A DNA stretch of 38,409 nt from a virus. Positions 265-38,379 of the stretch are shown one piece after another (position 1 is the stretch's first letter; each line of letters opens with the position of its first letter). The translations under genes were made by a program, and so were the position numbers. The stretch lies in the UHGV virus genome UHGV-1369436. One strand, written 5' to 3'. The notes under the pieces were generated by a model. The model did no database searches. It saw nothing but the letters and a program-made list of their open reading frames with translations, and was not told the origin of the DNA.

Positions 265-687
265 ATGCCCGCCTATGCTCGGTGGTCGTGTCCTCGGGAC
301 ACGAAAGGAAATAGGAACATGAACCAAGAAGGGTACAAGCATGAAGTGCCAGCGTATCATCTGATGATGCTTTATCTTGCGGCATATAGTAGGGACATAG
401 AGCGAGCACAGGATGCTTTTAGAGTATATAAGTATCTAGTGGAGAGGCGTCGTGAACTTATCCCGGGCAAAGAAAAAGGCGTTATCTGTACATGGAAAGA
501 TGTTGCACGAGCATTGAAACTGGACACAAAAAGCGCTTTTCATGCTTTCAAAACACTAAGAGATTTGCGTTGGGTTACAAAAGAATATGTTGGAGGTAGT
601 CCAGTATATTACCGTGTCATATCACCAGATGAAACATTAGACATGGCAATTTTTATATTTGGCGGGGATATCAACAAATGGAGTTAG
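265..687 (+). CDS. Winged-helix/HTH DNA-binding protein. Alternative start at 319 (MNQEGYK).
   Basis: ORF track 181..687. C-terminal segment ...VICTWKDVARALKLDTKSAFHAFKTLRDLRWVTKE is HTH-like. The start was moved downstream of the promoter at 181-209. GAGGA lies 10 nt upstream of ATG 265. Confidence 0.45.
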   Translation: MPAYARWSCPRDTKGNRNMNQEGYKHEVPAYHLMMLYLAAYSRDIERAQDAFRVYKYLVERRRELIPGKEKGVICTWKDVARALKLDTKSAFHAFKTLRDLRWVTKEYVGGSPVYYRVISPDETLDMAIFIFGGDINKWS

Positions 688-1724
688 GAGATAAAAACCA
701 CCAGGCGGGCTGGACAGGCTACATAAATGCGGATGTACGATATGACAGGCGGCTGACTAATACAGCAAAGATAATAATGGTCGAAATATCAGCCCTTACT
801 AATATGAAGGGCTACGCGTGGTGCACTAATCAGTATCTCGCAGATGCATTTGATCTTTCAAGGTCGCAAGTATCACGTATTATTAGGAAGTTGGCAGAGT
901 GCGGCTACATCAATGTGTACCTTAACCCGGGCGGGGAGCGTTACATCACGATCACCAGCAATGACCGACCAGTACCTAGTGGTTTTAAAAAGGACTACAC
1001 GAAAAAAGCAGAGCCAGAGAACGAGCAAGACGATAAATTACTTAAAGTGGCTACCACTGTTGAAGAGGTTTTGCCAGAAGCAAAACCGATAGACATTAGC
1101 GAGACAGAATTGCGTGAACTTACCACAGCAGAGCAATGCGCCCTACAGACAAAAAATATCGAGGCCGACAACTACGACCGCCGCGGTGAGATTCTTGATA
1201 AGAATCTGTACGACAAGCTCAAGTTGGAGATTATTGCCGAATCAGATGCCACAGCCAAAGCAGAGGAGCAACCAGAGCAAGCTCCGGCAAAGCAAATCGA
1301 GGCCAGCGCACACCATAATGCTACCTCAACAGAGCTAGTAGCAGCATCAAATAACGCGCCAGAACAGCACAATACCCCATACGGTAAACTTGCAACACCC
1401 ATGACAAGTACGCGTAAGAACTATAACCCCGCTGAAAAGGCGTTTTATGACGCAGCAAAAGCCCTTGGGGTAAGTATTGCAAATCATAATCAAGCACGCA
1501 GCTGGGTTAAAGAAGTAGTAAGGACTAGAGGAATTGAGTCAACGGTAAACTACTTTGATTTTATGCGGCTCGTCTTCCCCAAATGGGAATATGAATATAA
1601 ACCAAACATTGACTCCGCACATGACCTTGCGATGAAAGCGGCTAAGATTGAGCAACTTATTCAAAGGCAGCAACGCGAGAATGCTCGTAAAATTAATTAC
1701 GACAATATTGACTTTTACGGCTAG
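678..1724 (+). CDS. Putative replication initiator / replisome organizer with an N-terminal HTH (…GYAWCTNQYLADAFDLSRSQVSRIIRKLAECGYI…).
   Basis: 348-aa ORF. The N-terminal helix-turn-helix resembles phage replication-initiation protein N-termini. The central region is acidic and low-complexity. It lies immediately after the iteron array. Confidence 0.5.
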   Translation: MELGDKNHQAGWTGYINADVRYDRRLTNTAKIIMVEISALTNMKGYAWCTNQYLADAFDLSRSQVSRIIRKLAECGYINVYLNPGGERYITITSNDRPVPSGFKKDYTKKAEPENEQDDKLLKVATTVEEVLPEAKPIDISETELRELTTAEQCALQTKNIEADNYDRRGEILDKNLYDKLKLEIIAESDATAKAEEQPEQAPAKQIEASAHHNATSTELVAASNNAPEQHNTPYGKLATPMTSTRKNYNPAEKAFYDAAKALGVSIANHNQARSWVKEVVRTRGIESTVNYFDFMRLVFPKWEYEYKPNIDSAHDLAMKAAKIEQLIQRQQRENARKINYDNIDFYG

Positions 1725-3044: not shown

Positions 3045-3527
3045 ATGGAGAGAATCTATAGAGTGATAGCTATACGTCGCGACGGTGTGTGGCAGTATTG
3101 GGAACCGACACTGAGCCTATTCACATTCAAAGAAATACCAACAAATAGATACTACCAATACACAGAAGCACTCAGGGAATACCGAAGAGCGATAGACGAA
3201 TCAAGCCCTGATGATATATCGTGTGTTTCAATCAACGAGAAGATGGGTACCGATGGCACGTGGCACACACTCAAAGAGCGGCAATTTACCCAGAGTGAGC
3301 GATCAACAGAGTCAATCATGATAGATATTGGTACAGCTAGATTAAGCATGAAGACAACATCAGCAAAACTACGTGAGATTGCAGAATTGTCTAAACTCTC
3401 AAGAGAAACAAGGGAAGAGATTGAGCGTATTAGCAACAAGCTATACAGCCTCTCTCGACTCACATGGAATCTACAGAATAAAGTATTAAAGGAACTAGAG
3501 AATGATATACAAGACACAGAAGACTAA
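3045..3527 (+). CDS. Hypothetical protein (160 aa).
   Basis: ORF with SD GAGGAGAAGG. Confidence 0.65.
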   Translation: MERIYRVIAIRRDGVWQYWEPTLSLFTFKEIPTNRYYQYTEALREYRRAIDESSPDDISCVSINEKMGTDGTWHTLKERQFTQSERSTESIMIDIGTARLSMKTTSAKLREIAELSKLSRETREEIERISNKLYSLSRLTWNLQNKVLKELENDIQDTED

Positions 3528-3813
3528 ACAAGACCTACGAGAATCAGAAGAGACATTACAATTTGTCATGGCTGGTATCAAATGTCACCTTCCTAAAAAC
3601 CCAGCGACTCAAGTTATCCTTGAGCGCATAGAGAAAGACATTCGCCTATACGGAGACATTTGCAACATCGAAGGACGTGTTACAGAGTTTCTAGAGGAGG
3701 TAGGCGAGAATAAGCTCACCATGCTCCAGCGTGATTTTGATAACGTAAAATCAGGCAAAATGAGCTGTAAAGAAATTGCAAATAAAATCCGAAAAGAGTA
3801 TAATGAATGGTAG
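3502..3813 (+). CDS. Hypothetical protein (103 aa).
   Basis: ORF track entry. Overlaps the upstream gene. Confidence 0.55.
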   Translation: MIYKTQKTKQDLRESEETLQFVMAGIKCHLPKNPATQVILERIEKDIRLYGDICNIEGRVTEFLEEVGENKLTMLQRDFDNVKSGKMSCKEIANKIRKEYNEW

Positions 3814-3879
3814 ATGGAGGTAATACTTTCATAGCACATTTTGTAGCAGTGGTGTAGAATCTTTCTAACTACAACTATA

Positions 3880-4068
3880 GTATCTGTGCCTGGTTCCTCC
3901 TTGTTACGTGGTTAGGCACAGACACACAATACCTTTCTTCCCATGGAACAGTTTTCCCAGTTACCCGGCAAGACCACGAGACAACCCTCAACAATAGCAC
4001 GAAATGTGCTGTCTCGGTAACTGTGTTCCATGTAACACCCCACCATCTCCTCGGTGGGGTTTAACTTT
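3880..4068 (+). ncRNA. Candidate structured non-coding RNA or regulatory region ending in an intrinsic terminator.
   Basis: A 320-bp ORF-free gap. It contains a hairpin CTGTGCCT…AGGCACAG (3884-3921). Long-range complementary segments are present: CCATGGAACA at about 3950 with TGTTCCATG at about 4030, and AGCACATTT at about 3834 with AAATGTGCT at about 4008. A local hairpin AGCAC-GAAAT-GTGCT is also present. Confidence 0.25.
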
Positions 4069-4072
4069 GTCT
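4041..4072 (+). terminator. Rho-independent terminator CCCCACC-ATCTCCTC-GGTGGGG followed by TTTAACTTT.
   Basis: 7-bp GC stem, 8-nt loop and a U-rich tail, read directly. Confidence 0.6.
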
Positions 4073-4114
4073 ATACATGTTGTAAATTCTACCTGAGAAA
4101 ATAGCTAAAATCTA

Positions 4115-4143
4115 TTGCATCCCTCAACAATAAGATGTACAAT
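4115..4143 (+). promoter_or_regulatory. Early promoter TTGCAT-N17-TACAAT plus conserved leader ACAAACATAAACATAAGGCAAAGAGGAGAAG.
   Basis: 17-nt spacing. The -10 overlaps the ATG at 4135, which argues for the start at 4180. Confidence 0.55.
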
Positions 4144-4179
4144 ACAAACATAAACATAAGGCAAAGAGGAGAAGCCACA

Positions 4180-4443
4180 ATGTCAATCTACACACACTAC
4201 ACCATTGAAGCCACGACAAGGCTCGGAGAGGTATACGTATGGGATCCGCTCATCAGTGAGTATGAGTGCCAGAACAACCAGGAATCATCTGATATTAGCA
4301 CAGAGGACGAAGCTCTCGATGAATTTGGCTACGCAGTCGCAGCAGCAGACCTAGACGAGTTTATGAAAGTGAGTCTACTCCGTGTCACAGAGCTTAGCAA
4401 CGGCTCATCAGATGTATCAGTAGTAGAGTACAAGAATTTCTAG
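4180..4443 (+). CDS. Hypothetical acidic protein (87 aa).
   Basis: Track ORF 4135..4443. Start reassigned to ATG 4180, which has AGAGGAG 9 nt upstream and lies behind the promoter. Confidence 0.6.
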   Translation: MSIYTHYTIEATTRLGEVYVWDPLISEYECQNNQESSDISTEDEALDEFGYAVAAADLDEFMKVSLLRVTELSNGSSDVSVVEYKNF

Positions 4444-4451
4444 GAGGAGCG

Positions 4452-4676
4452 ATGCAAAACTGGAAAGTAAGAAAGAAACTCTATCAGGAGTCGTGGGAGC
4501 TAAAAGACATGAGGTACCGTCTCAACCTCCTCCGAGAGTTTGTAGACGACAAATACTACATCAACAACGCAACCGAATACCTCGACAAAGCCCTCAGCAA
4601 CATCGAGCTAGCAATGGATAGCAAGCAACTCAAGAAAGCATACGAACCACTAACCAAGCGAGAAAAGGAGAACTAA
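4452..4676 (+). CDS. Hypothetical protein (74 aa).
   Basis: SD AGGAGGAG 5 nt upstream. Confidence 0.65.
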   Translation: MQNWKVRKKLYQESWELKDMRYRLNLLREFVDDKYYINNATEYLDKALSNIELAMDSKQLKKAYEPLTKREKEN

Positions 4677-4678
4677 CA

Positions 4679-4846
4679 ATGTATCTATACACAATCGAGT
4701 ACAAAAGGCTCAGCCGAAGCCAAAAAGAGGAATATAAGACAGTAGCAGAAAATGCTCGTGTCGCACTCCGTAACCTCGAGCGTAATCGATGCAAACCATA
4801 CAGCTACCGTATCATCAACGTAGAGCGTGTAGGAGAGGATGACTAA
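4679..4846 (+). CDS. Small hypothetical protein (55 aa).
   Basis: SD AAGGAGAA upstream. Under 60 aa. Confidence 0.4.
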   Translation: MYLYTIEYKRLSRSQKEEYKTVAENARVALRNLERNRCKPYSYRIINVERVGEDD

Positions 4847-4847
4847 A

Positions 4848-5135
4848 ATGAAACCATACATGATCGTCTACCGCCGTAAAAGCATCAAAGGCACACTATC
4901 CCGCATAGTAAAAGCTAACAACCAAGACGAGGCAATCTACGCCTTAAAGCTGAAGTTCGACCCAGACGGCACAGAGAACCTATCAGTAAAAGATGTGCAT
5001 CTTCTAGATAAAGCACTCTCTGAACCATTCGTCACCCGACACACAGACGCCACCTCAAGCCTCGCTTTACATGATCAAGCCTACCAGCGCTACCGGCTCA
5101 TAAACAGACACCCAGGAAAAGGAGGAATAATCTAA
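4848..5135 (+). CDS. Hypothetical protein (95 aa).
   Basis: Track ORF 4839..5135. ATG 4848 has a better SD (AGGAGAGG). Confidence 0.6.
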   Translation: MKPYMIVYRRKSIKGTLSRIVKANNQDEAIYALKLKFDPDGTENLSVKDVHLLDKALSEPFVTRHTDATSSLALHDQAYQRYRLINRHPGKGGII

Positions 5136-5383
5136 TGTACCACTACCACCTACTCTACAAGCACAACCCTAGTGATAAATGGAGTATCTATACTACTACA
5201 GCATTAGATAATGGTACAGCTATCACTAATCTGCTAAAAGACAAAGAAGCAGTATATGACTATAGGATTATTAAACAAGAAAAGACAGAGAATAACGATA
5301 CCAATATAGCCCACAGTCTATTTAAACTATTCGTTTGGCTCTTTACTATAGCTATGGTGCTGTGGGTAGTACAGCAGAGATAG
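5135..5383 (+). CDS. Hypothetical protein with a C-terminal transmembrane helix (82 aa).
   Basis: SD AAAGGAGGAATAA. TAATG overlap with the upstream gene. Confidence 0.6.
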   Translation: MYHYHLLYKHNPSDKWSIYTTTALDNGTAITNLLKDKEAVYDYRIIKQEKTENNDTNIAHSLFKLFVWLFTIAMVLWVVQQR

Positions 5384-5469
5384 ACACAAACACACAAAAA
5401 CACACACTAGGAGAGGTTTGCGAGGCCTCTCCTCTTGTCATTCATAAGGGAAATGCTTATAATGAGTGC

Positions 5470-5946
5470 ATGGCTAAATCATCTTCTAGCAAGTCTGCAG
5501 ATAAGCTAGGCAGACCAAAAAGGAAATACAACGCTCCACCGGGCATGAATAACAACCCTACTGGCAAGGGCGGTTTTGGCGATAATCCACAAAACGGAGC
5601 GGGTGGTCGCTGGTCAAAAGACACCAGCATCTCGTACTGGTATAACAAGCTAGGCCGTATGACCCTCAAGGAGCTTGAAGAATTTGAGAAAAAGGGCGAT
5701 GAGCTTACTCCGTTCCAAAAGACAGCTCTCGTACGTGTTAAGCGCGCCTACAAGGGAGACTCTGAAGGCTTAGCAGAAGCTAAAGAGGTAGCAGACCGCA
5801 CAGAAGGCAAGGCCAAGCAGGATATATCTATCGACGCCAGCGATGATATGAAAACTATCATGAGAGGCTTTATTATACCAACACTACCAACGGATTGGAT
5901 CGATGAGCAAGTCGCATTGGCCCGTTCTAAACAAAGCAAAGTATGA
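5470..5946 (+). CDS. terS: Terminase small subunit (TerS). The track ORF begins at 5335; the likely start is MAKSSSSKSADKLGRPKRKY.
   Basis: Contains the motif GRPKRKYNAPPGMNNNPTGKGGFGDNPQNGAGGRWSKDT, characteristic of phage small terminase subunits. Lies immediately upstream of TerL. Confidence 0.6.
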   Translation: MAKSSSSKSADKLGRPKRKYNAPPGMNNNPTGKGGFGDNPQNGAGGRWSKDTSISYWYNKLGRMTLKELEEFEKKGDELTPFQKTALVRVKRAYKGDSEGLAEAKEVADRTEGKAKQDISIDASDDMKTIMRGFIIPTLPTDWIDEQVALARSKQSKV

Positions 5947-7504
5947 TGAGCTGCGAGAAAAGGGCTATTGGCTACCATTACCAGGCCCTCAGCAGCTCGC
6001 TATAGCGTTATCACGAGATAAGAGATTCCGTGAGATATTATTTGGTGGTTCTCGTGGTGGAGGCAAGACAGATGTGTCTATTGCTACTATTGGCGATCGC
6101 TTTGGCGACACTAGAGCCCGCCAGCTCGTCATTCGTAAAGACGCAGGAGACCTAGCGGACTTTGAGGAGCGTGCTGTAGCAGCTCTCCAGCCATTTGGAG
6201 CTAAGCTACGCCGCAATCCTATGGTGCTCTCCGCTAAAGGCTGTGGCCGTGTCATTGGTGGACACCTTCACGACGCTGAAGCTTACACAAAGTATCAAGG
6301 GCATGAGTACTGCCGTATCAATATCGAGGAGCTAACTCAGATACCAGACGAGGGACGTTATGAGAAGCTCATTAGCTCTGCTCGTAGCAAGTACAAAGAC
6401 CTATACCCTCAGGTATTCGCTACTACCAACCCAGGTGGCGCTGGCATGGGCTGGGTGAAGAAACGTTTCGTAGCACCAGACCCAGACAGGGCAGAAGTGC
6501 TCAAGATGGAGTATCCTTGGGTAGACATATACGGCAAGAAACAAGTCACACACTGGCAAATCGTTATAGATAAGCGTACAGGTATCTGGAGAGCCTATAT
6601 CCCAGCCACGATTGACTCTAACCCATTCTTGCTCGAGAATGACCCAGATTACGTGAAGTACCTCGACTCTCTCCAAGACTCAGACCCAGAGCTGTATCGT
6701 GCCTGGCGTTTTGGTGACTGGGACATTCAGTTTGGCGCTGTGTTTGAGGAGTTTCGGCAGAGTAAGCATACCTACGCCAAGTTCAGTGAGTGGGGTGTTA
6801 CAAAAGAAGCATTTGACAGCAATTACCGTGTCATGGGCATGGACTGGGGCTACAACGACGAGTGTGTACTACTGTGGGCTATGTTCGACAACATCACAGA
6901 GAAAGAGAACAGAGCGTTTATCTACCGTGAGCTACACGGTAACCACAAGCCTAAAGAGTGGTGGTGCGAGAGGATTGTGGAGATGTATCTCAAAGACCCG
7001 GTAGACTTGATAGCACTACCACATGACGCTTACAGCCACCTGGGAGGCTCTGAGACGATCGCTAAGGTGCTCAATGATACATTTGCCCGTCTTGCCCCAG
7101 ATGAGAAGCGTCCACGCATCGTACGGGCTGATAAGCTCATGAAAGATAGGAAACAGGCAGCAGTGCAGATGATTCACAGTGCTTTCGCTAACAAATCGGA
7201 TGGCAAACCTGGCCTGATATTCAGCAAATACTGCTCATACCTCATAGACACGCTACCTACCATCATCTACGCCAAGGAGTCTGGCGGTGAGGAGCTTGAC
7301 CCTAACAACGTAGACCACGCTCTAGACTCTCTCATGTACACGCTCATGACAGCCAACCGCGAGTATGGGTTCCTGGTGAATGAAGCAAAGAGAATCAACA
7401 AGCTCACCAAGCAGTCATTTACCATAAACCCAGGCGGCAGAGTAGAGGCAAAAGACATTGGAATTGATATTGCAACAGCGGTAGAGACAGATAAGCTCAC
7501 ATAA
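5903..7504 (+). CDS. terL: Terminase large subunit (ATPase plus nuclease).
   Basis: Walker A GGSRGGGKT and Walker B-like VIRKD/DE motifs. 533 aa. Positioned after TerS and before the portal. Confidence 0.8.
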   Translation: MSKSHWPVLNKAKYDELREKGYWLPLPGPQQLAIALSRDKRFREILFGGSRGGGKTDVSIATIGDRFGDTRARQLVIRKDAGDLADFEERAVAALQPFGAKLRRNPMVLSAKGCGRVIGGHLHDAEAYTKYQGHEYCRINIEELTQIPDEGRYEKLISSARSKYKDLYPQVFATTNPGGAGMGWVKKRFVAPDPDRAEVLKMEYPWVDIYGKKQVTHWQIVIDKRTGIWRAYIPATIDSNPFLLENDPDYVKYLDSLQDSDPELYRAWRFGDWDIQFGAVFEEFRQSKHTYAKFSEWGVTKEAFDSNYRVMGMDWGYNDECVLLWAMFDNITEKENRAFIYRELHGNHKPKEWWCERIVEMYLKDPVDLIALPHDAYSHLGGSETIAKVLNDTFARLAPDEKRPRIVRADKLMKDRKQAAVQMIHSAFANKSDGKPGLIFSKYCSYLIDTLPTIIYAKESGGEELDPNNVDHALDSLMYTLMTANREYGFLVNEAKRINKLTKQSFTINPGGRVEAKDIGIDIATAVETDKLT

Positions 7505-28282: not shown

Positions 28283-28306
28283 TCTAGCCTCTAGATTATC
28301 CAAGAA

Positions 28307-28330
28307 CCCCACTCCGGTGGGGTTTTATTG
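28307..28330 (+). terminator. Rho-independent terminator CCCCAC-TCCG-GTGGGG followed by TTTTATTGTT.
   Basis: Read directly downstream of the major capsid gene. Confidence 0.7.
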
Positions 28331-28354
28331 TTGTAAATAAAACTCAGAAAAGTG

Positions 28355-28383
28355 TTGACTCTATTCTTTAGATGGTGTACTAT
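28355..28383 (+). promoter_or_regulatory. Promoter TTGACT-N17-TACTAT plus conserved leader AGAGACATAGCAAACATAAGCAAGAGAGGAGATAA.
   Basis: 17-nt spacing. Member of the conserved promoter/leader family. Confidence 0.55.
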
Positions 28384-28425
28384 AGAGACATAGCAAACAT
28401 AAGCAAGAGAGGAGATAATACTTGC

Positions 28426-28689
28426 ATGGCTAAAGAAAGTAAAACTAATAAGAAAAGCCAAGACGTAATCTTTGGGGCAAACGAAGAGATTCGCCGCGCC
28501 GTAGATAAGCTCTATGTAAAAAAGACAAGCGCTATCATGACGGCAGCGATCTTTGCAGTAATGCTCTCGCTGATCGCAGCAGGTGTAGCTTTCGCGGCAG
28601 GCCTCAACACAGGCCGTACACAGGTTGAGAAGTACAACACTATCAAGGTTGTGACGAGCGAAACCGCGGGAAAAGAAAAAGCCCAGTAG
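28426..28689 (+). CDS. Small membrane protein (87 aa, one TM segment).
   Basis: Track ORF 28372..28689. Start reassigned to ATG 28426 behind the promoter, with a GAGAGGAG SD. TM segment IMTAAIFAVMLSLIAAGVAFAAGL. Confidence 0.55.
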   Translation: MAKESKTNKKSQDVIFGANEEIRRAVDKLYVKKTSAIMTAAIFAVMLSLIAAGVAFAAGLNTGRTQVEKYNTIKVVTSETAGKEKAQ

Positions 28690-29315: not shown

Positions 29316-29594
29316 CTATTTCACGTCCTTCATAAAGTCTAACGGGTCTTTTTCTGTTTGCCCTGTCTCATCGCGCCATTGAGCATTGATAGTCACAGGA
29401 TCGGCGGCTTCAATGATGCCGCTATGTTTTTTGTCTTTGTTTTTATTTATGTATTGTTCCTCCGCGCCCGCGTATTTCTCCAGCCAGGAGAGGCCTGCCC
29501 GTCGTACCGTAGTAGGTACAACCGGGTCATGGCGGTTATTTAGCAAAGCGACTAGGAGGGCACAAATTGAGATGACAAGAGCTACAATATCCAT
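29316..29594 (-). CDS. Hypothetical protein with an N-terminal transmembrane helix (92 aa).
   Basis: MDIVALVISICALLVALL…. Confidence 0.5.
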   Translation of the reverse strand: MDIVALVISICALLVALLNNRHDPVVPTTVRRAGLSWLEKYAGAEEQYINKNKDKKHSGIIEAADPVTINAQWRDETGQTEKDPLDFMKDVK

Positions 29595-31072
29595 TATTCT
29601 TGATCCTTCTCAAATGGCAGAGCCACGTTAATCGATAGGAGCTGCGCAGCGACGCTGTGGCTATTTATGATTGCCTCCTCGATAGATTTAGCGCTATCTA
29701 CAATACCAGCCTCTAGAACGTCTGTGTGGTACGTCTCAGAATAAATATCGTAACCGGCCTTTGGTGTGTACGGCTTGTCCTCAGTCGTCTCCTTAGCCAT
29801 ACTACCTACAAGCATTGTGTATGGCTGTGTGAGGTAACTAGGCATATTAGTGGTGTCGCCTTCGTATACGTCGCGTAGGAACGTACCACCACCAGGGAGC
29901 ACTCCATAGTCTTTTGCAATCTGGGTAGCTGCTACAGCGTCCTCAATACGGAGCTTTAGCTCTTGCCGCTCAACCTGTGTAGCTGCACCAACGCTAATCT
30001 CAACAGTCTTACCATTCAAGGCATCACGCCGGTAATCGTCCTTGATACCTTCGATGTATTGATCCAGCTTCTCGCGGTTACCTGGGCCAGATAGGATTGT
30101 CTTTGTAGTGGTGATATGAGCGCGCTCAACCTTACCGATATTGGCATCTGTAAAGTCTGATACGCGTGGTGATACGAACACCTCAGCGCCAGCATAGGCT
30201 GCTACGTCACGAAGGAATAGCTCGCGTGCTTGACTCGATGGCTCTACTACGACAATGTTCAGTTTGCCGTTCATCTTATTGGTAGCGAGAGTCTCCAGGG
30301 CTTGGCCTGATACGTCTGCTACGAGTACGATGCTCTCTGCACCCGCCTTGAGAACTGCGTCGATAATAGGTACAATGTCATCGTTCTTGCTGATGATGCG
30401 AGACATGACAATAACGGTTGGGTTGTCGTATTTAGTCTGGATAGATTGCATATCGTCTGCGAAGGCAATGGACGACATACCTTTTTTAAATGTGAACCCT
30501 TGGACGATTTTACTCTCGATCTTATTCTCTGGTGTTTCTACCACTGTTACTGCGCCATTAGCACCAGCATCGTTAATAGCATCAAACACTAGATGGCCGA
30601 TAGCCTCATCACCTGATGACGTGTGTGCGACGCTATAGAGTAGCTCGTCTGTGGCTTTGATCTTAGTGTCTTTGATAGCCTTGATGATAGCCTTCTTATT
30701 TTGCTCAATCTGCTTTTGTACGGCTCGTGGCTTATCCTTCGCCATCTCCTTAAAGTAGTTATAGACGAGGTAGGTCATTACGATAGTAAGAGTTGTAGAG
30801 TCGCCAGCTGAACGGTTCGTTTTCTCGCTGGCCTGGCGTACAAGGGAGATTGCCATATTCTCTACTGGATCTGCTACTACGAGGCGGCCAATATTAGTAA
30901 TACCGTCATGAGATACGAGAGGCTCGCCGTAGCGGTGTTCGATCATGATATTACCAGAGTTTGCGCCATATGAGGAATATGCTACGTCGAAGGCCTTCTC
31001 AACGCCCATACTGATCTTTTTTTGTAGCTCATCACCACGTATTACATTACGTACTGAGGTTTGTTTAGGCAT
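29594..31072 (-). CDS. GroEL-like chaperonin (Cpn60 family, about 492 aa). It lacks the GGM tail.
   Basis: Alignable by eye to GroEL. AGDSTTLTIVM resembles AGDGTTTATVL. VGAATQVERQELKLRIEDAVAATQIAKDYGVLPGGG resembles [36 protein letters not shown]. C-terminal GIVDSAKSIEEAIINSHSVAAQLL resembles [23 protein letters not shown]. Start at ATG 31072, which has a GGAGGT SD. Confidence 0.7.
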   Translation of the reverse strand: MPKQTSVRNVIRGDELQKKISMGVEKAFDVAYSSYGANSGNIMIEHRYGEPLVSHDGITNIGRLVVADPVENMAISLVRQASEKTNRSAGDSTTLTIVMTYLVYNYFKEMAKDKPRAVQKQIEQNKKAIIKAIKDTKIKATDELLYSVAHTSSGDEAIGHLVFDAINDAGANGAVTVVETPENKIESKIVQGFTFKKGMSSIAFADDMQSIQTKYDNPTVIVMSRIISKNDDIVPIIDAVLKAGAESIVLVADVSGQALETLATNKMNGKLNIVVVEPSSQARELFLRDVAAYAGAEVFVSPRVSDFTDANIGKVERAHITTTKTILSGPGNREKLDQYIEGIKDDYRRDALNGKTVEISVGAATQVERQELKLRIEDAVAATQIAKDYGVLPGGGTFLRDVYEGDTTNMPSYLTQPYTMLVGSMAKETTEDKPYTPKAGYDIYSETYHTDVLEAGIVDSAKSIEEAIINSHSVAAQLLSINVALPFEKDQE

Positions 31073-31361
31073 CCAGTAAACCTCCATTTACAGCGTCTAC
31101 AGGGACAAAGATAAACATTTTACTGTCTACTTCAATCTCCTCACTGTCGTTATACTTCGTAAAATATATTTTGTTGCCAAGGAATTTCGAGAGTGTGTCC
31201 TCCTTGTCTGTAGACACACCAGAAGGGTGAATATATACAGCCTTTAGTGTGCCGCTCGTATGACTGCCGTGATCCCCTTGTGAGATAGACAGACTCGAGC
31301 CATATTTGTTAGTTACCTCTACCAGGCAAAACCCTGGCATGACGTGTAACTGTGTGCTCAT
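31065..31361 (-). CDS. GroES-like co-chaperonin (Cpn10 family, 98 aa).
   Basis: Mobile-loop-like SSLSISQGDHGSHTSGTLKAV resembles [22 protein letters not shown]. The C-terminal block …GNKIYFTKYNDSEEIEVDSKMFIFVPVDAV resembles …[35 protein letters not shown]. Lies directly upstream of and overlapping the GroEL-like gene. Confidence 0.6.
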   Translation of the reverse strand: MSTQLHVMPGFCLVEVTNKYGSSLSISQGDHGSHTSGTLKAVYIHPSGVSTDKEDTLSKFLGNKIYFTKYNDSEEIEVDSKMFIFVPVDAVNGGLLDA

Positions 31362-31413
31362 TGTTGTGCTCCTATTTAGTTATTGCTTGTGTATCCATTA
31401 TAGCATTAGGCTA

Positions 31414-31446
31414 GAAACCAAAAAAGAGGCCGAAGCCTCTCTCTTG
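31414..31446 (-). terminator. Rho-independent terminator (- strand): AGAGGC-TTCG-GCCTCT followed by TTTTTT.
   Basis: Read on the reverse complement. An A-run on the + strand makes it partly bidirectional. Confidence 0.65.
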
Positions 31447-31462
31447 GTTTGGTGTAGTTATA

Positions 31463-31945
31463 CTATACTTCGCACCAGAAATAGTGGCCGGCTGGCACAG
31501 CACTACGGGTGTAAACCTTAGCGCCCGCTGTAACCTTCTTGAGGTTATCATAGTCATTGGGGCGAACCTGGCAGCCAGTGTTGGCTGCTACGTCCTCGAG
31601 GATTTGGTCGCGGAGGTAGACGTAGTCACCCGAAACCTGAATAAACTCAAGGAGTTGCTTGTTGTTGATAAGGATGGTGCCATCTTGCCAACCATCAGCT
31701 TGGTGACCAGGCTTCAACTGGATAACAGTGTCTCCAGTTTTAGCATCAGCTGCCAACCCGCCGTTTTTGTTTGTGGCGTCGTTTTTCATCCCAGTCCAAT
31801 ATGGCTGAGCGTCGGTGTCTGCCGACTTACAATAACGGAACTGCCGCCCCGTATCTGTAAATGCAATTTGGCCGATCACGCCACGCTTATCTGGAGTCGT
31901 GGTAAATTGTGATTCTGGCACTGCTACGCCGTAGTTTACTAGCAT
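31463..31945 (-). CDS. Hypothetical protein (160 aa). Apparently a monocistronic unit between two terminators.
   Basis: Own TATAAT and SD AGGAGA upstream (31946-31990). Terminators on both sides. Confidence 0.6.
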   Translation of the reverse strand: MLVNYGVAVPESQFTTTPDKRGVIGQIAFTDTGRQFRYCKSADTDAQPYWTGMKNDATNKNGGLAADAKTGDTVIQLKPGHQADGWQDGTILINNKQLLEFIQVSGDYVYLRDQILEDVAANTGCQVRPNDYDNLKKVTAGAKVYTRSAVPAGHYFWCEV

Positions 31946-31993
31946 AATTGTCTCCTATTATTAAAGATTATACTAGCTTAATACTAACATATA

Positions 31994-32021
31994 AGGAGGG
32001 CTTTTCGCCCCCCTATTTTTT
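31994..32021. terminator. GC hairpin GGAGGGC-TTTT-CGCCCCCC followed by TATTTTTT.
   Basis: Read directly. Separates the VRR-NUC operon from the downstream monocistronic unit. Confidence 0.4.
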
Positions 32022-32032
32022 CTAGTGTTGTT

Positions 32033-32485
32033 CTAGAAAATTTGATCGTTTGGTGTTTGTTTTCGTCTTTCCTTATAGTCTGTCATAGCCATGTATTTAT
32101 CTATTTGGTCTTTTGCATCGTCGAACCCCACCGCAAATGTGCATCGATAACCTCGCTCGCTCAGACGCTTCATGTAGGCGTGTTGCTCTGCAAAGTGTTC
32201 GTTCGCCCAGCTGCCATCTTTTTTCATGAGGCGTACCCCATCACGCTTCAGCTCGAGGTACAGCCCATGATACCACTCACCCGCTAGTTGTGCTGGTTCA
32301 GCGATAAATAGGTCTGGGTATCCTCTACCTTCCTGTAGTGCCTTATGTTTGATAGCCTGCCCCATTGTCATCTTAACGCCAGCGCTAAAGTCTGTGCGGA
32401 ATATGACTCCTGGATACTGTAGCTTTAAATAGTCCACCACCATCTGGTGGATGGTGGACTCTTTTGCGGTTCTAACTCTCGCCAC
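32033..32485 (-). CDS. VRR-NUC domain nuclease (PD-(D/E)XK superfamily). GTG start.
   Basis: VVDYLKLQYPGVIFRTDFSAGVKMTMGQAIKHKALQEGRGYPDLFI…GLYLELK matches the VRR-NUC pattern (E…G.PD..…LE.K). Confidence 0.55.
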   Translation of the reverse strand: MARVRTAKESTIHQMVVDYLKLQYPGVIFRTDFSAGVKMTMGQAIKHKALQEGRGYPDLFIAEPAQLAGEWYHGLYLELKRDGVRLMKKDGSWANEHFAEQHAYMKRLSERGYRCTFAVGFDDAKDQIDKYMAMTDYKERRKQTPNDQIF

Positions 32486-32894
32486 GGTACATACCCTCTA
32501 CGATCATGACCTTGAGCGTCTCTAGGACAGCCACATCTTTCGTAGCCATCACCCGGCCAGATAGGTCATCTCGTGGCACAGCCTTCTTGATACGTCCGTT
32601 GTAGCGTGGGATAATCGAGAGAATTGAGCCGTTCATTGTAACCTCGTAGCGACTTTTCTCCTCTTTTACCTTGAACTTCTCATTTTTAAGGAGCACCCGT
32701 TGGATATTGTCCGCAGCCGCAAATGATAGTTCTGCGTACGGTGTAGCGCGTCCGCCCTTTTTGCCGGCGATAGATGCTAGTTGCGGGTTCTTGCCAAATC
32801 CCTTCTTTACCTTAGCAGACCCGCCTAGCTTGCCAATTTTTTTGTAGTAGTCATCACCATGCGTTAGGCGTTTGTCATATTTGCTTTGTTTCAT
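32472..32894 (-). CDS. Protein with an N-terminal KGG-type repeat region (GKLGGSAKVKKGFGKNP…AGKKGGRA). Function unknown.
   Basis: KGG/GG-K repeats resemble the KGG stress-protein repeat. C-terminal domain of unknown function. Confidence 0.4.
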   Translation of the reverse strand: MKQSKYDKRLTHGDDYYKKIGKLGGSAKVKKGFGKNPQLASIAGKKGGRATPYAELSFAAADNIQRVLLKNEKFKVKEEKSRYEVTMNGSILSIIPRYNGRIKKAVPRDDLSGRVMATKDVAVLETLKVMIVEGMYRGES

Positions 32895-33063
32895 TAAACT
32901 TCTCCAATTCTTCCTTTTGTATTCTTGCGCTCTCTTTACGTATAAACGCTATCGCTGATTTGAACCCTTGCTTTAGATTTATCTTTAATGCCTCGTCTAT
33001 CATAGCGTTGAGCCGATAGTCAATACGGTCATCAACACCGTCTACATCGTTGGGTGTCATCAC
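32875..33063 (-). CDS. Hypothetical protein (62 aa).
   Basis: ORF track entry. Overlapping in-operon gene. Confidence 0.4.
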   Translation of the reverse strand: MMTPNDVDGVDDRIDYRLNAMIDEALKINLKQGFKSAIAFIRKESARIQKEELEKFNETKQI

Positions 33064-33503
33064 ATTTTTACCTGTTTGGTAATCGCGCTACGCACACCGC
33101 GTGTGTATTGCTTAGCTTGCACAGTATCAAGCCGCCGGTTGATGGCGTCAACGATAACTTCGCGGTCGCTAATCTCTGCGAGCATCTGATACTTGTAGGT
33201 TTGTAGCTCACTCTCTGGTAGGCCGTCTACCACCTCTTGTATTTCAAACAGTGCGGGCTGGACAGCCTCAGCTTCTGGCGTCTCCCAGTCGTGTGGCTCT
33301 ACAGTGTTACCATTGAATACATCACGTGGCAATGCCAACTGGTCAACCATCATGTCGTTGCCTTGCCCGATATGTTTCTTATATTCGCTCATACTCTCCT
33401 CCGTTTGGTGTTTACAATGTCCGCGCAAGTGATCGCTTAGTGTGTCGAACTGTGCCCACTTGTCGTTAGTCTCTTGGTTTAATTTTGGTGTGTTGTAGTT
33501 CAT
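33060..33503 (-). CDS. Hypothetical protein (147 aa).
   Basis: ORF track entry. Start and stop overlap the neighbouring genes. Confidence 0.55.
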   Translation of the reverse strand: MNYNTPKLNQETNDKWAQFDTLSDHLRGHCKHQTEESMSEYKKHIGQGNDMMVDQLALPRDVFNGNTVEPHDWETPEAEAVQPALFEIQEVVDGLPESELQTYKYQMLAEISDREVIVDAINRRLDTVQAKQYTRGVRSAITKQVKM

Positions 33504-33784
33504 TTGTTCTCCTTTCTTTTATAATAATCTACTATTCTAGTACCGTTCATTATCTCTCGACGATCAGGTGGTGTGTCGTTATATAGCTTTACCAACTCTA
33601 GCACAGTGTCTTTGACTAAATCGATCATAAACGCGCCGTTATACACTTTGTACCCTCCGTTCGCTTCATTGATGATGATAGTGCCATCGTGTATATTAGA
33701 GAATATATATGTCTCTCCTGGCCTTAAAATGTCTATTCTATAATTGAGCATTTCAACGGCTTCTTTTAGTTCTCTTTGTTTCAT
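33500..33784 (-). CDS. Hypothetical protein (94 aa).
   Basis: ORF track entry. Confidence 0.5.
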   Translation of the reverse strand: MKQRELKEAVEMLNYRIDILRPGETYIFSNIHDGTIIINEANGGYKVYNGAFMIDLVKDTVLELVKLYNDTPPDRREIMNGTRIVDYYKRKENK

Positions 33785-33975
33785 GACAGCCTCCCTACTT
33801 CATCTACAATTTTTTCTTTTAACATCTCGATCGCTGTGTATACTAGAGTCACGCCACTCTCATCAATCTCGGTAATAGCCGCACGCTTCTCTAGTTCATC
33901 TAGGTCAATCTTGGTGTTTTCAACTATCTCTTGTACTTTGTATTTAGTCAGTAGCATTTTTAACTTCCTTTGCAA
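33781..33975 (-). CDS. Hypothetical protein (64 aa).
   Basis: ORF track entry. Confidence 0.45.
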   Translation of the reverse strand: MQRKLKMLLTKYKVQEIVENTKIDLDELEKRAAITEIDESGVTLVYTAIEMLKEKIVDEVGRLS

Positions 33976-34387
33976 ACGCGGTTACGCCACGCTCTTTTAG
34001 TGAGTCGATAATGTCGTATGCCCTCGCCCCTCTATAGGCCTTGGCGGCCTTTTCGTTAACGGTCGCTGTTATCTCTTTATCGTTGATACGTAAGAGATAT
34101 AGCGCAGCACCTTTGATGCCAATTTTATACAGTGGCTCATCTCGCTTATCTAGTGGTGTTGATGCGTACCTATATAGTGTATCAAGCACGTACTTCCGAT
34201 GGTCTGGCGCTGTATCAGTTGTTACTCTCATGCTATATATCTCATCTACTCGCACACTACCAACACCCCAGCTTCCATCATATACGTTCACAAACGTACC
34301 ATAAGCCTCATTTTGTATGCGCGCTTGAAACCCAGCAGCTGCTAGCTCGTCGATCAACTCTAGTGTTGTTATATAGTTTTCACTCAT
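33944..34387 (-). CDS. Hypothetical protein (147 aa).
   Basis: ORF track entry. Confidence 0.55.
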   Translation of the reverse strand: MSENYITTLELIDELAAAGFQARIQNEAYGTFVNVYDGSWGVGSVRVDEIYSMRVTTDTAPDHRKYVLDTLYRYASTPLDKRDEPLYKIGIKGAALYLLRINDKEITATVNEKAAKAYRGARAYDIIDSLKERGVTAFAKEVKNATD

Positions 34388-34643
34388 ACATCGCCACCTT
34401 TGTTGCTAAGATACCCATACGCTCACGTGGTGTAAGCCCGCCTCGCATACCGTACTCTACATCTCCAGTCATCAGAGCATCTGCTAGGCACTCGCCTTTT
34501 ACTGGACACTCAGCACAAATCTTACGTGCATCGTTGTAGTTGTTGTACCCGTTATACTCATCAGCGTATGCTTTGTTGACCGGGAAAAACGCTTCCGGGT
34601 CTGTCTGTGCGCACAGTGCGCTGCCTCGCCATTTATTCTCCAT
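34380..34643 (-). CDS. whiB: WhiB-like (Wbl) 4-Cys Fe-S transcription factor.
   Basis: ALCAQTDPEAFFP…ARKICAECPVKGECLADAL…GGLTPRER. Compare the WhiB pattern C…DPE.FFP…C..CPV…CL..AL…GvWGG..e.ER. Confidence 0.7.
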   Translation of the reverse strand: MENKWRGSALCAQTDPEAFFPVNKAYADEYNGYNNYNDARKICAECPVKGECLADALMTGDVEYGMRGGLTPRERMGILATKVAMYE

Positions 34644-34874
34644 ATATATACCTCATGCTATGTGTTACTTATATATTCTTTGGCTATATCAAGGACTGCT
34701 TTTACTGAGCGTATTGCCCCAATAGAAGGTTTGAGTATACTTCAGTATAAGTCATCGTTCTCATATTCCAAAAGTCAATTGATAGAATCCTCTGTGTATA
34801 TTAGACTATTTTTTGCTGAGTTTATTTCTCCCTTTAAAATTGCTTTTTCAGCAACCGTCGTGTTACCTCGTCGT

Positions 34875-35096
34875 TTACTCCCCATTGTCTAACCTCCCAA
34901 ATAGTCTATTTTTTATCATTGCAACCGCCCAGTCTGTAGCAGCGGTTGATGGGGTGTCGCGGTTCTTATGTTGCTCCTCCCACATATCGTACTGCGCTTG
35001 GATAATACCCATCTGGATAAGGCCTATAATCTCCTTAGCCTTCATACCGTTGTTGGTTGATTTATCAAGAATTTCTAGAATTTTCTGTTTCATCAA
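34875..35096 (-). CDS. Hypothetical protein (73 aa).
   Basis: ORF track entry. Confidence 0.5.
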   Translation of the reverse strand: MMKQKILEILDKSTNNGMKAKEIIGLIQMGIIQAQYDMWEEQHKNRDTPSTAATDWAVAMIKNRLFGRLDNGE

Positions 35097-35330
35097 TTAA
35101 TCATCCTTGCATGTTACCGCTATTGTGATAAATGAGATTGTCTCAATCGCTTTGCTCACTGTCCATAGAATCATGACTATAGACAATAAACCCCACCAGA
35201 ACCCGCTATCAAACCCTTTTGTGCTGAGTAGCCATGCTGTGAGTACACCTAATACTGTCACATACATGATGCGTGCAAAAGCAACTACAACCATCGCTTT
35301 ATGATAATCGTTATTATTTTGTTGTTCCAT
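35097..35330 (-). CDS. Small membrane protein (two TM segments, 77 aa).
   Basis: Track ORF extends to 35372. Start moved to ATG 35330 because the promoter -10 (35359-35364) lies inside the longer ORF and the conserved leader ends at this ATG. Confidence 0.55.
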   Translation of the reverse strand: MEQQNNNDYHKAMVVVAFARIMYVTVLGVLTAWLLSTKGFDSGFWWGLLSIVMILWTVSKAIETISFITIAVTCKDD

Positions 35331-35358
35331 GAGTTTCTCCTCTCTATTGTTTATGTTT

Positions 35359-35387
35359 CTATTGTAACGCAAGCATTAGCTAAAGTC
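35359..35387 (-). promoter_or_regulatory. Early promoter (- strand) TTGACT-N17-TACAAT plus conserved leader AGAAACATAAACAATAGAGAGGAGAAACTC.
   Basis: Reverse complement read directly. Confidence 0.55.
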
Positions 35388-35404
35388 AACGCTTTTACTC
35401 AACT

Positions 35405-35674
35405 TTATTTATCTCGTAGTCCCCACCGCCTAATATACCGGCCATTCATCTCTAGCCGTGTACTTCGTCCCCATCCAACACACTCAAAGTCTAACGTGCG
35501 GAACACTCCGCCAATAGTATTGTGGTGTAGAAACTTCGGTAGTGGTTTTCTCTTAAGGACGTCCTCGATTGTCACATATTGCTGTGTCTTGAGGAGGCAG
35601 CGAGCCGTAGCCCGCGCTTCCTCTAGCCATTTGATCTTTTCAGCCTTGAACATATCATTTACTGTACGTGCCAT
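35405..35674 (-). CDS. Hypothetical protein (89 aa).
   Basis: ORF track entry. Confidence 0.5.
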   Translation of the reverse strand: MARTVNDMFKAEKIKWLEEARATARCLLKTQQYVTIEDVLKRKPLPKFLHHNTIGGVFRTLDFECVGWGRSTRLEMNGRYIRRWGLRDK

Positions 35675-35688
35675 GTTTATTATCCTTT

Positions 35689-37650: not shown

Positions 37651-38320
37651 CGTCGCTCTCCTCTCCATTATTAGCGTTAGCGGTTAGTTCTTCCTCTACG
37701 TAGATACCTGCAATGTCGAAGCCTGCACGTAGAGCGTTTGCCTCAGCACACTTAGTGAGCATCACTATAGGCATGGTTTTCCAGTTGCTTATCGGCTGAC
37801 CTTCACGGTTAGTGCGTACAAACTCATCGTAGTAGGCTGTATATCGTGTAACCTCGATTGGCGTACTCGTGTTGTCCCAGCGGCCAAATACAGGCACCGT
37901 GACGCTCAGGAGCTTATCGCCATCTTTCTTAACTTCTGCTGCACCTGTGTGAGTGTACACGCCACCCTTCCGCGCTAGCTTACGCAAACCGTGGATACTC
38001 ACGATTGGCATTAGCTCCTCGCCCCGTCGGTTCGAGTCCCAGATATATGTAGCGTAAATCTCCTTTTTAAACGGGTTCAGGCCGTACTGGTTGGCGATAG
38101 CCATAAATACCCGTAAGTCACCGATTGGACGCATCTCGCCCGTCTTGGTGAGCCCTAGGACGCTTTTATGCAAGGTGGCGATCAAGCTCAGCGTCTGCTT
38201 TTCATTCTCAGCGTTGCTGATCATACCCTTAGCGAGTGGGACGACAGGCTCATACTGGTTTTTCAGCGCAAGCTGCATAGCCCTCTTCTCGTCACGTTTT
38301 GTAATTTCTTGCTGTGTCAT
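37643..38320 (-). CDS. recT: RecT-family single-strand annealing protein.
   Basis: C-terminal MLTKCAEANALRAGFDIAGIYVEEE matches the RecT signature. Start at ATG 38320 behind the conserved leader (the track extends to 38362). Confidence 0.65.
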   Translation of the reverse strand: MTQQEITKRDEKRAMQLALKNQYEPVVPLAKGMISNAENEKQTLSLIATLHKSVLGLTKTGEMRPIGDLRVFMAIANQYGLNPFKKEIYATYIWDSNRRGEELMPIVSIHGLRKLARKGGVYTHTGAAEVKKDGDKLLSVTVPVFGRWDNTSTPIEVTRYTAYYDEFVRTNREGQPISNWKTMPIVMLTKCAEANALRAGFDIAGIYVEEELTANANNGEESDDE

Positions 38321-38350
38321 GCAAGTTCTCCTCTCTTTGCTTATGATTCT

Positions 38351-38379
38351 ATTGTAGCTCATATGGCAAGCAAAAGCAA
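38351..38379 (-). promoter_or_regulatory. Early promoter (- strand) TTGCTT-N17-TACAAT plus conserved leader AGAATCATAAGCAAAGAGAGGAGAACTTGC.
   Basis: Reverse complement read directly. Confidence 0.55.

Follow-up and report, generated by a model that had tools for sequence, protein, structure and literature searches.

A putative new family of structured non-coding RNA in a clade of 38–39 kb phages

The oral-metagenome phage genome UHGV-1369436 (~38.4 kb, complete or near-complete; its whole stretch of 38,409 nucleotides (nt) is referred to here as the window) contains a candidate gene for a non-coding RNA (ncRNA) between two open reading frames (ORFs), one at 3502–3813 (103 aa) and one at 4180–4443 (87 aa). 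The kind of molecule, a phage-encoded structured small RNA (sRNA) that represents a new RNA family, is well supported by comparison of related phages, and its function we infer. The locus may be a stand-alone gene whose structured ncRNA base-pairs in trans with purine-rich ribosome-binding regions, and this is the explanation tentatively placed first among those considered below. An initial annotation, made from the letters of the window, had described 3814–4100 as a discrete structured RNA and not a spacer, and conservation, covariation, strand asymmetry and a framing promoter and terminator support that description. The coordinates given there need correction: the predicted promoter (3776–3804) lies outside them, and their last part (4070–4100) belongs to the next promoter region.

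Fold, covariation and strand

The region is shared by 23 IMG/VR loci at 79–92% nucleotide identity. A protein search with the upstream ORF returned 90 clusters at 69–97% identity, mostly ENA/Logan contigs of 38–39 kb, and seven ENA/Logan relatives plus four contigs binned into metagenome-assembled genomes (MAGs) were added to the comparison. A covariance model built on the proposed structure (R1) aligns 34 copies, 31 of them distinct (alignment A3), and matches the window and the clade members searched on the + strand with 243–347 bits. The region is present in every clade member found.

Comparisons of these copies provide evidence for a conserved RNA fold. First, among the 31 distinct sequences of the R1-fitted alignment, standard pairs occupy 98.5% of pair cells, and 15 of the 60 pairs have changed on both sides while keeping the pair. 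In controls with the 3’ partners slid by 1–3 columns, 31–42% of cells pair and double changes are seen at 0–3 pairs, although the controls do not fully correct for relatedness and recombination. Compensatory substitutions thus exceed the shifted-register controls, and the check for covariation and conservation that accompanied the initial annotation is passed. Second, the covariation score is 0.190, and column shuffles reached the observed values in 0 of 500 trials. Third, an alignment made by MAFFT only, not fitted to the structure, still has 97.2% paired cells and five compensatory pairs, and RNAalifold alone, run on A3, returns the same helices. Stem haplotypes of H1, H3, P5 and J5/6 (elements as in Table 1) are mosaic among relatives (e.g. 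L006, L137, L135, L136), which indicates apparently frequent recombination within a few hundred bases among co-circulating clade members; the pair-cell counts overstate the number of independent events because stem haplotypes have been shuffled in this way.

The substitutions also identify the strand. G·U or U·G pairs fill 97 cells at 16 pairs, compared with four A·C cells, so that the folded molecule has + polarity, like the flanking genes. The minimum free energy of the + strand between 3814 and 4075 is -83.7 kcal/mol versus -62.1 ± 4.7 for 200 dinucleotide shuffles (z = -4.63), none of which folds as well; the - strand folds less strongly (z = -3.2).

From 5’ to 3’, the predicted RNA consists of three hairpins (H1–H3), a single-stranded CU-rich linker, a 91-nt irregular hairpin (P4–P7) and a terminator hairpin (Table 1). 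H1 has compensatory changes at five of its seven pairs (AUGGAGG/CUUUCAU versus AUAAGG/CCUUAU). H2 has double changes at two of nine pairs and a G·U pair conserved in 30 of 31 sequences, and its apical part differs in a second haplotype by other sequence and an indel (UUUC...GAAA). H3 corresponds to the 38-nt hairpin at 3884–3921 of the initial annotation, which proves real; five of its nine pairs are compensatory, relatives show three or more stem versions that are mutually compensated (UCUGUGCCU, CCUACGCC(C)U and CCUGCAUCU), and the H3 loop contains CCUCCUU. The linker CU run has an unpaired probability of 0.78 in the full-length fold. The bulges of the 3’ domain, J4/5 (variable), J5/6 and J6/7, all lie on the 5’ side.

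The long-range complementarity noticed earlier near 3950/4030 is likewise real and conserved, and is accounted for by P4 and P5. A second one, near 3834/4008, exists as sequence (3833–3844/3999–4010, 11 of 12 bases) and is unsupported as a pairing or as a nested one: the helix would cross those of 3942–4032, most relatives have a C·A mismatch in it, and in L107 a G-C to U-A change falls inside the local hairpin 3996–4010 while 3834 is unchanged. Two further candidate helices were rejected. Pairing of the H3 loop with 4028–4037 (10 bp in the window) suffers uncompensated disruptions in L025, L055 and the second haplotype, and L133, L136 and L055 carry uncompensated breaks in a pairing of the H3 loop with J6/7 (4+5 bp).

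Table 1. Predicted elements of the RNA and other features of the window. Pi, nucleotide diversity by element in the alignment of relatives (flanking coding sequence averages ~0.16); SD, Shine-Dalgarno sequence; UTR, untranslated region.
Feature	Position	Strand	Description	Pi
Replication initiator	678–1724	+	HTH_36/DnaD-like; ~2 kb upstream of the RNA	
Promoter P1 (predicted)	3776–3804	+	sigma-70-type; TTGCAA, 17-nt spacer, TATAAT; 10/12 consensus positions	
ncRNA transcript (predicted)	3811–4069	+	~255–260 nt; ends predicted	
H1	3814–3832	+	5’-terminal hairpin, 7 bp, 5-nt variable loop; 98.6% of cells paired	arms 0.31–0.39
H1 loop	3821–3825	+		0.51
H2	3850–3878	+	hairpin, 9 bp plus apical extension AGAA/UUCU; 100% of cells paired	arms 0.07–0.08, loop 0.31
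H3	3883–3922	+	hairpin, 9-bp stem, 22-nt loop; 99.6% of cells paired	
H3 stem	3883–3891/3914–3922	+		0.24
H3 loop	3892–3913	+	GGUUCCUCCUUGUUACGUGGUU	0.08
Linker	3923–3941	+	conserved, single-stranded, CACACAAUACCUUUCUUCC; 11-nt pyrimidine run	0.09
3’ domain	3942–4032	+	91-nt irregular hairpin	
P4	3942–3950/4024–4032	+	9 bp; 94% of cells paired; only one-sided G·U-type changes	5’ arm (3942–3950) 0.18
J4/5	3951–3957	+	indels of 1–5 nt	0.56
P5	3958–3965/4016–4023	+	8 bp; 1 compensatory pair	
P6	3978–3982/4011–4015	+	1 compensatory pair	
J6/7	3983–3995	+	CCCUCAAC	0.08
P7	3996–4000/4006–4010	+	loop GAAAU; 1 compensatory pair	
Continuous 3’ strand of 3’ domain	3996–4032	+		0.00–0.08
Intrinsic terminator	4037–4069	+	ACCCCACC, loop AUCUCCUC, GGUGGGGU, then UUUAACUUU; terminator scan	
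Terminator stem and loop	4037–4060	+		0.00–0.01; loop 0.00
Neighbouring element, outside the RNA	4078–4182	+	box TGTTGTAAAT, promoter P2, 5’ UTR/SD (AAGGCAAAGAGGAGAAGCC) of the gene starting at 4180	
Second terminator-then-promoter junction	5409–5463		11-bp hairpin AGGAGAGGTTTGCGAGGCCTCTCCT, then TTGTCA-17-TATAAT (11/12 matches)	
Large terminase terL	5903–7504	+	1.8 kb from the RNA locus	
Paralogous cassette	28303–28430		terminator AACCCCAC-UCCG-GUGGGGUUUU, box TGTTGTAAAT, TTGACT-17-TACTAT, UTR AAACATAAGCAAGAGAGGAGA	
Cpn60/TCP-1 family chaperonin homologue	29594–31087	-	497 aa; PF00118, E = 2.9e-33	
WhiB-like protein	34383–34643	-	93% identical to the L135 ORF carrying PF02467	
PD-(D/E)XK/FtsK fusion ORF	35689–37668	-	659 aa; PD-(D/E)XK nuclease domain plus FtsK alpha and FtsK/SpoIIIE ATPase domains	
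RecT	37643–38362	-	adjoins the PD-(D/E)XK/FtsK fusion ORF	

The same alignment bears on whether the region codes for one or more small proteins, such as a Cys-rich product of 4004–4096 (30 aa), a product of 3943–4020 (25 aa) or an extension of the upstream ORF by TAG readthrough. Of all the explanations weighed here this one seems the most improbable. As the initial annotation had it, no ORF of at least 60 aa lies inside 3814–4100; the longest internal ORFs have 44 aa (3912–4046, - strand) and 41 aa, and a spurious 76-aa antisense ORF (3609–3839) extends 26 nt into the region. Short ORFs do exist, and reading on in frame from the upstream gene gives four stops, each of them TAG (3811, 3832, 3844 and 3913), before the first TAA at 4018. 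However, the ATG of ORF 4004–4096, the sole plausible start codon, is ACG in L011, lacks an SD and lies inside the P7 loop, the J4/5 indels of 1, 3, 4 and 5 nt break the 3943 frame and the antisense frames, and substitutions track base-pair compensation without codon periodicity; the segment thus does not have the properties of a small coding gene. Amber recoding of the upstream ORF was rejected as well: the upstream gene ends TGA-TAG in L016 and L017, so that the TAGs are true stops, and indels shift the frame.

Boundaries of the transcription unit

The predicted promoter P1 lies within the final 12 codons of the upstream ORF, where the synonymous sites of its -10 hexamer TATAAT (codons Tyr-Asn) and of the GAG before it do not vary among 24 sequences (20 distinct). 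The -35 hexamer among relatives is TTGCAA or TTGCCA, and the spacer keeps its 17-nt length while several of its bases vary. The position of P1 places the transcript start at ~3811, which is 7–8 nt past the -10 hexamer and 2–3 nt before H1; a putative promoter directly ahead of a 5’ hairpin is the classic layout of a stable sRNA.

At the other end, the initial annotation had reported a clean intrinsic terminator at 4041–4072, and the terminator is indeed present and invariant after a small shift of coordinates. Its 8-bp stem (4037–4044/4053–4060; six G-C pairs) closes an 8-nt loop and is followed by the tail TTTAACTTTG to ~4069. The G+C-rich hairpin and U-rich tract are those of a rho-independent terminator, with the U-tract interrupted (UUUAACUUU). 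Stem and loop do not vary in 30 distinct sequences, the stem has a pairing probability of ~0.99 in the full-length ensemble, and in IMG/VR each phage contig with the terminator 22-mer has a single copy of it, with no arrays. The transcript would end in the T-tract that follows the terminator, and expression of the locus as a discrete transcript with these ends is inferred from such signals.

A promoter was also noted downstream, and a plausible one (P2) is found there, although its designation as early lacks support. The conserved box TGTTGTAAAT at 4078 precedes P2, which has TTGCAT at 4115–4120, a 17-nt spacer and TACAAT at 4138–4143. The hexamers and the UTR are conserved, in contrast to a hypervariable spacer (pi 0.35 at 4120–4139, versus 0.03 at 4140–4199). 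P2 was missed by the consensus scan because its -35 matches only three of six positions. As the conserved P2 and the invariant UTR/SD would serve the next gene, the RNA would form a separate unit and the downstream operon has no need of read-through.

This arrangement is relevant to a cis-acting explanation, in which the segment would be a structured 3’ UTR and terminator of the upstream (replication or early) operon serving as an insulator, or an antiterminated leader of the lambda PR’-tR’/6S or put kind. The position of the RNA between the replication module and the small-gene/terminase/structural module, all on the same strand, is suited to such a role, as is a strong terminator followed at once by a promoter. 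Distant relatives have a terminator and then a promoter in the same slot, with unrelated sequences; a similar terminator-promoter cassette recurs at 28303–28430; and StxS and lambda 6S, short RNAs terminated at tR’, offer a precedent (PMC7547250). However, with P2 in place the downstream genes require no read-through, and an insulator would not require a covarying structure of 220 nt with conserved loops. The terminator stem pairs almost without competition in the ensemble; the sole competitor for its 5’ arm, a possible antiterminator formed with the 5’ end of the RNA (3812–3820/4040–4048), is lost in relatives of the AUAAGG type, and no Q-like or other antiterminator protein was recognized among the upstream proteins by Pfam or PHROG. 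A riboswitch or attenuator is likewise not indicated, since no conserved antiterminator is found, the downstream gene has its conserved promoter and no riboswitch model matches. A cis role is therefore considered unlikely, and is ranked third among the possible functions.

A DNA-level site is far less probable still. Here the segment would be a single-strand initiation site or origin, a pac or cos site, or an attP-like site, and its hairpins would form in single-stranded DNA. The replication initiator gene lies 2 kb upstream and very high conservation is typical of DNA sites recognized by proteins; strand-specific covariation alone does not separate this explanation from an RNA, because single-stranded DNA tolerates G·T pairs. 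Several features argue the other way. There are no iterons, direct repeats or tandem structure; the segment is not adjacent to terS/terL, terL lying at a distance of 1.8 kb; the ORFs scanned included no integrase; the 22-nt core occurs only on phage-sized contigs and never flanks host DNA in genome representatives; and the bracketing promoter and Rho-independent terminator with U-tract mark a transcription unit.

Conserved loops and possible function

Conservation is distributed unevenly along the RNA (Table 1). Its 3’ half is better conserved than the flanking genes (pi 0.00–0.08 versus ~0.16), and the H3 loop, the linker and the terminator loop are likely recognition surfaces because they are far more conserved than the compensating stems. 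In the long hairpin, the 3’ strand stays fixed as the strand paired with it drifts, which implies a constraint beyond pairing.

Three conserved motifs are exposed: UUCCUCCUU (H3 loop), CCUUUCUUCC (linker) and UCUCCUC (terminator loop). In 16S rRNA of the Gram-positive type, the anti-SD tail reads CCUCCUUUCU. The motifs resemble this tail and are thus complementary to the long purine-rich SDs of the phage, among them AAAGGAGGAA, AAAGGAGAA and GAGGAGA; between UUCCUCCUU and the SD that precedes the gene at 5135, nine of nine bases are complementary. Pyrimidine runs of at least 7 nt number five in 259 nt, versus 0.26 expected from the sense strand (Poisson 8e-6), although this statistic was picked post hoc and compares a non-coding segment with purine-rich coding sequence, which weakens it as support. 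In the ensemble, four of the five runs are largely unpaired. The run in H2 is paired in part, and that in J4/5 lacks conservation.

Because the conserved unpaired surfaces are pyrimidine-rich and anti-SD-like, pairing in trans with SD regions appears to be the most likely of the possible functions, and a trans-acting regulator that occludes ribosome-binding sites is ranked first because the design matches that of chaperone-independent sRNAs with C-rich loops (6C, PMC6486639). In this tentative scheme, transcription would start from P1 inside the 3’ end of the upstream ORF and stop at the 4037–4069 terminator, which would also insulate the next promoter and operon. The exposed CU motifs would then pair in trans with ribosome-binding regions of phage and/or host mRNAs and modulate their translation or stability, with the stems and the 3’ domain as scaffold and stabilizer.

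Several further observations weigh against this scheme. Promoter-like consensus sites are no commoner in the window than in shuffles, so that support for P1 comes from its conservation and position. SD complementarity is generic, and a duplex scan of six unpaired segments against all phage transcripts gave no outlier target, its top matches lying inside coding regions. The host is uncertain, and the target scan covers phage transcripts alone. Loops and candidate UTRs are invariant, which leaves no covariation between loop and target to be seen, and the sole loop variant (UUCAUCC in L020) is not accompanied by a corresponding change in the neighbouring UTR. Finally, base pairing leaves unexplained why the paired 3’ strand at 3996–4060 is invariant while its partners drift.

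This last pattern suggests that the RNA contacts a protein or has a second function, and a role in binding or sequestering a protein, as decoy or scaffold, fits better there because the 3’ strand is frozen. The invariant 3’ hairpin and terminator would then be a recognition platform for one of the 103-aa or 87-aa neighbours, a nuclease or defence protein, or a pyrimidine-binding S1 or cold-shock protein. The paired 3’ strand and terminator are invariant (pi 0.00–0.08 over 3996–4060) while the 5’ partners vary in G·U-compatible ways, whereas H1 and H3 evolve freely by compensation, so that 3996–4060 would be constrained in sequence and not only in pairing. The asymmetric bulges J5/6 and J6/7 are conserved, and the RNA constantly co-occurs with both flanking clade-specific small proteins. 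However, neither protein matches a Pfam or PHROG entry, the AlphaFold model of the 103-aa protein is of low confidence, and repeated binding motifs like those of CsrB or ToxI are absent from the RNA. Protein binding is rather doubtful as the primary role, and stands second after trans base pairing.

In a more speculative and rather improbable proposal, the RNA would be a phage mimic of the 16S rRNA 3’ end, in which CCUCCUU, CCUUUCU and UCUCCUC jointly spell the Gram-positive anti-SD tail and the 3’ hairpin recruits a protein. If so, it could titrate SD leaders or a factor that recognizes the anti-SD tail, and would reprogramme mRNA translation during infection, for example between SD-led and leaderless mRNAs, in an actinobacterial or Saccharibacteria host. 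A separate complementarity to 16S rRNA is present in the H3 loop, where CCUUGUUACG (3900–3909) could pair with CGUAACAAGG, a segment conserved universally in 16S rRNA (the 1492R primer site). In about half of the relatives the match is 9 nt or interrupted, and ~0.15–0.4 such 10-mer matches to a 16S rRNA are expected by chance; it is probably a coincidence.

Relation to known RNAs and genomic setting

The RNA has no counterpart in the collections searched. No match reached the gathering threshold when the whole window was compared with Rfam 15 (4227 covariance models), and at a permissive E-value 3600–4300 gave three chance-level matches (8.9–17.3 bits versus thresholds of 40–55; E = 2–10). ARAGORN found no tRNA or transfer-messenger RNA (tmRNA) gene in the window or in four RNA-bearing relatives, and BLASTN with the region as query found nothing among 50,697 GenBank phages. 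Searches with nhmmer and R1 found no homologue in relatives whose large terminase protein (TerL) is 54–67% identical, which have unrelated RNAs or gaps in the same slot, nor in the TM7 phage DolZOral124. An exact-pattern scan for the core found 24 contigs in IMG/VR and four in GTDB species genomes (Saccharibacteria or Atopobium MAGs), all phage-sized and of this clade; the RNA is therefore not host sequence or an attB site and forms no array. On this evidence it is confined to one clade of 38–39 kb phages. Nothing relevant was found in the literature on ncRNAs of TM7 or Saccharibacteria phages.

Two groups of known RNAs are the closest analogues. RsaE/RoxS and RNAIII of Firmicutes are chaperone-independent sRNAs with C/U-rich loops. 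The 6C sRNA of Actinobacteria also acts without a chaperone, through C-rich loops (PMC6486639). Like the 6C/RsaE type, the RNA described here is predicted to be a stand-alone transcript with an intrinsic terminator, its hairpins present conserved pyrimidine-rich loops complementary to ribosome-binding sites, and its loops are more conserved than its stems. Unlike that type, it is phage-encoded, is 2–4 times longer and has an extra invariant hairpin domain of 91 nt; its motifs are CU-mixed and anti-SD-like (CCUCCUU, CCUUUCU) instead of C-runs, any targets are putative, and there is no similarity of sequence or covariance model.

The second group concerns position. Lambda 6S is ~194 nt long. StxS is a 74-nt short transcript that starts at the late promoter PR’ and is terminated at tR’ (PMC7547250). 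Like these, the RNA would be a short terminated phage transcript that directly precedes a large operon on its own strand, where regulatory or replication genes give way to morphogenesis genes, and it could be both a by-product and a trans regulator. It differs in being far larger and more structured, in the conserved promoter owned by its downstream genes and in the lack of an identified Q-type antiterminator or qut-like element, and no homology was detected. P4 CI RNA, P1 c4, HK022 put and phi29 pRNA are structured phage RNAs of 70–200 nt from intergenic control regions, and the present RNA shares that setting. However, it has no repeated seq/target boxes as in P4 CI RNA and P1 c4, does not lie between a promoter and a gene without its own promoter as put does, and has no match to the pRNA model, the phage using a packaging motor of the terminase type. 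By analogy, the RNA would work like a C-rich-loop sRNA and sit like lambda 6S or StxS, as a member of neither family.

The slot that the RNA occupies is the boundary between the replication module and the small-gene/terminase/structural module on the same strand. Genes on the + strand span 181–29063, in the order initiator, small ORFs, terminase, SU10-type portal, amidase and structural genes; genes on the - strand span 29316–38362. Among the latter, the Cpn60/TCP-1 homologue is uncommon in a phage of 38 kb. Searches of Pfam and PHROG with the 103-aa and 87-aa neighbours of the RNA gave no match; both are clade-specific, and the RNA co-occurs with both in every case. The AlphaFold2 model of the 103-aa protein was too poor as a search query (predicted local distance difference test (pLDDT) 62, predicted template modelling score (pTM) 0.38).

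Other loci of the window resemble the junction downstream of the RNA. A third similar -10/UTR (GTGTATAGTAGAAACATA) is present at 2505 (2485–2522), and its likeness to the cassettes at 4078–4182 and 28303–28430 suggests a shared, possibly co-regulated promoter class, in which the TGTTGTAAAT box may be a regulator site. The terminator-then-promoter junction at 5409–5463 lies just upstream of a probable small terminase; with this junction, the small genes at 4180–5383 would form a short operon of their own. The listed TTG start at 5335 is probably incorrect.

More distant relatives carry other elements in the corresponding slot. L001 (MG269973, TM7 phage DolZOral124_53_65) has a 66-nt minihelix at 6643–6708, in an ORF-free gap (6421–6816) syntenic with the RNA locus. 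It matches the Rfam tmRNA model at either end (acceptor stem and T-arm, with a terminal CCACCA), with only 21 nt in place of the 328-nt body, and scores 34.9 bits in a local search (gathering threshold 47; E = 1.7e-12); it was not called by ARAGORN. Its third acceptor pair is G·U, and a G·U at this pair is the alanine identity element. The minihelix could be a mimic of the tRNA-like domain of tmRNA or a relic of an ssrA-type attachment site. In L028 (6486–6814) and L032 (3495–3877), whose TerL is 62–64% identical, another strongly folding ORF-free segment lies in the slot upstream of the terminase module. The two segments share the motif AAACUGGGGGCG...CUGAUGAGC...GUAGACCAGA, end in a terminator followed by a TATAAT promoter and have no Rfam match. 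Across the phage group, this slot appears to be a hotspot for ncRNAs that are unrelated to one another.

The identity of the host is uncertain, with Saccharibacteria and Atopobiaceae as candidates. TerL is 61% identical to that of the TM7 phage DolZOral124_53_65 (MG269973) and 97–99% identical to that of ~25 IMG/VR contigs of 38–39 kb, several with HMP-style sample ids. WhiB proteins are typical of Actinomycetota and their phages. The host is perhaps not a TM7 bacterium despite the nearest named relative, because the phage encodes a WhiB-like protein and three of its four MAG-binned copies are in Atopobium/Atopobiaceae bins, the other being in a Saccharibacteria bin.

Most knowledge of phage regulatory RNAs comes from a few model phages that infect Proteobacteria and Firmicutes, and almost nothing is known of those in phages of uncultivated or hard-to-culture oral lineages such as Saccharibacteria and Atopobiaceae. 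The conservation pattern of this RNA is unusual, in that its loops and one strand are frozen while its stems drift, and the locus is abundant enough in human oral metagenomes for the RNA to be tracked in metatranscriptomes. Should the anti-SD-like loops prove functional, the RNA would exemplify interference by a phage with translation initiation through an RNA; should they not, it would still provide a clean Rfam seed alignment and serve to mark this clade of phages.

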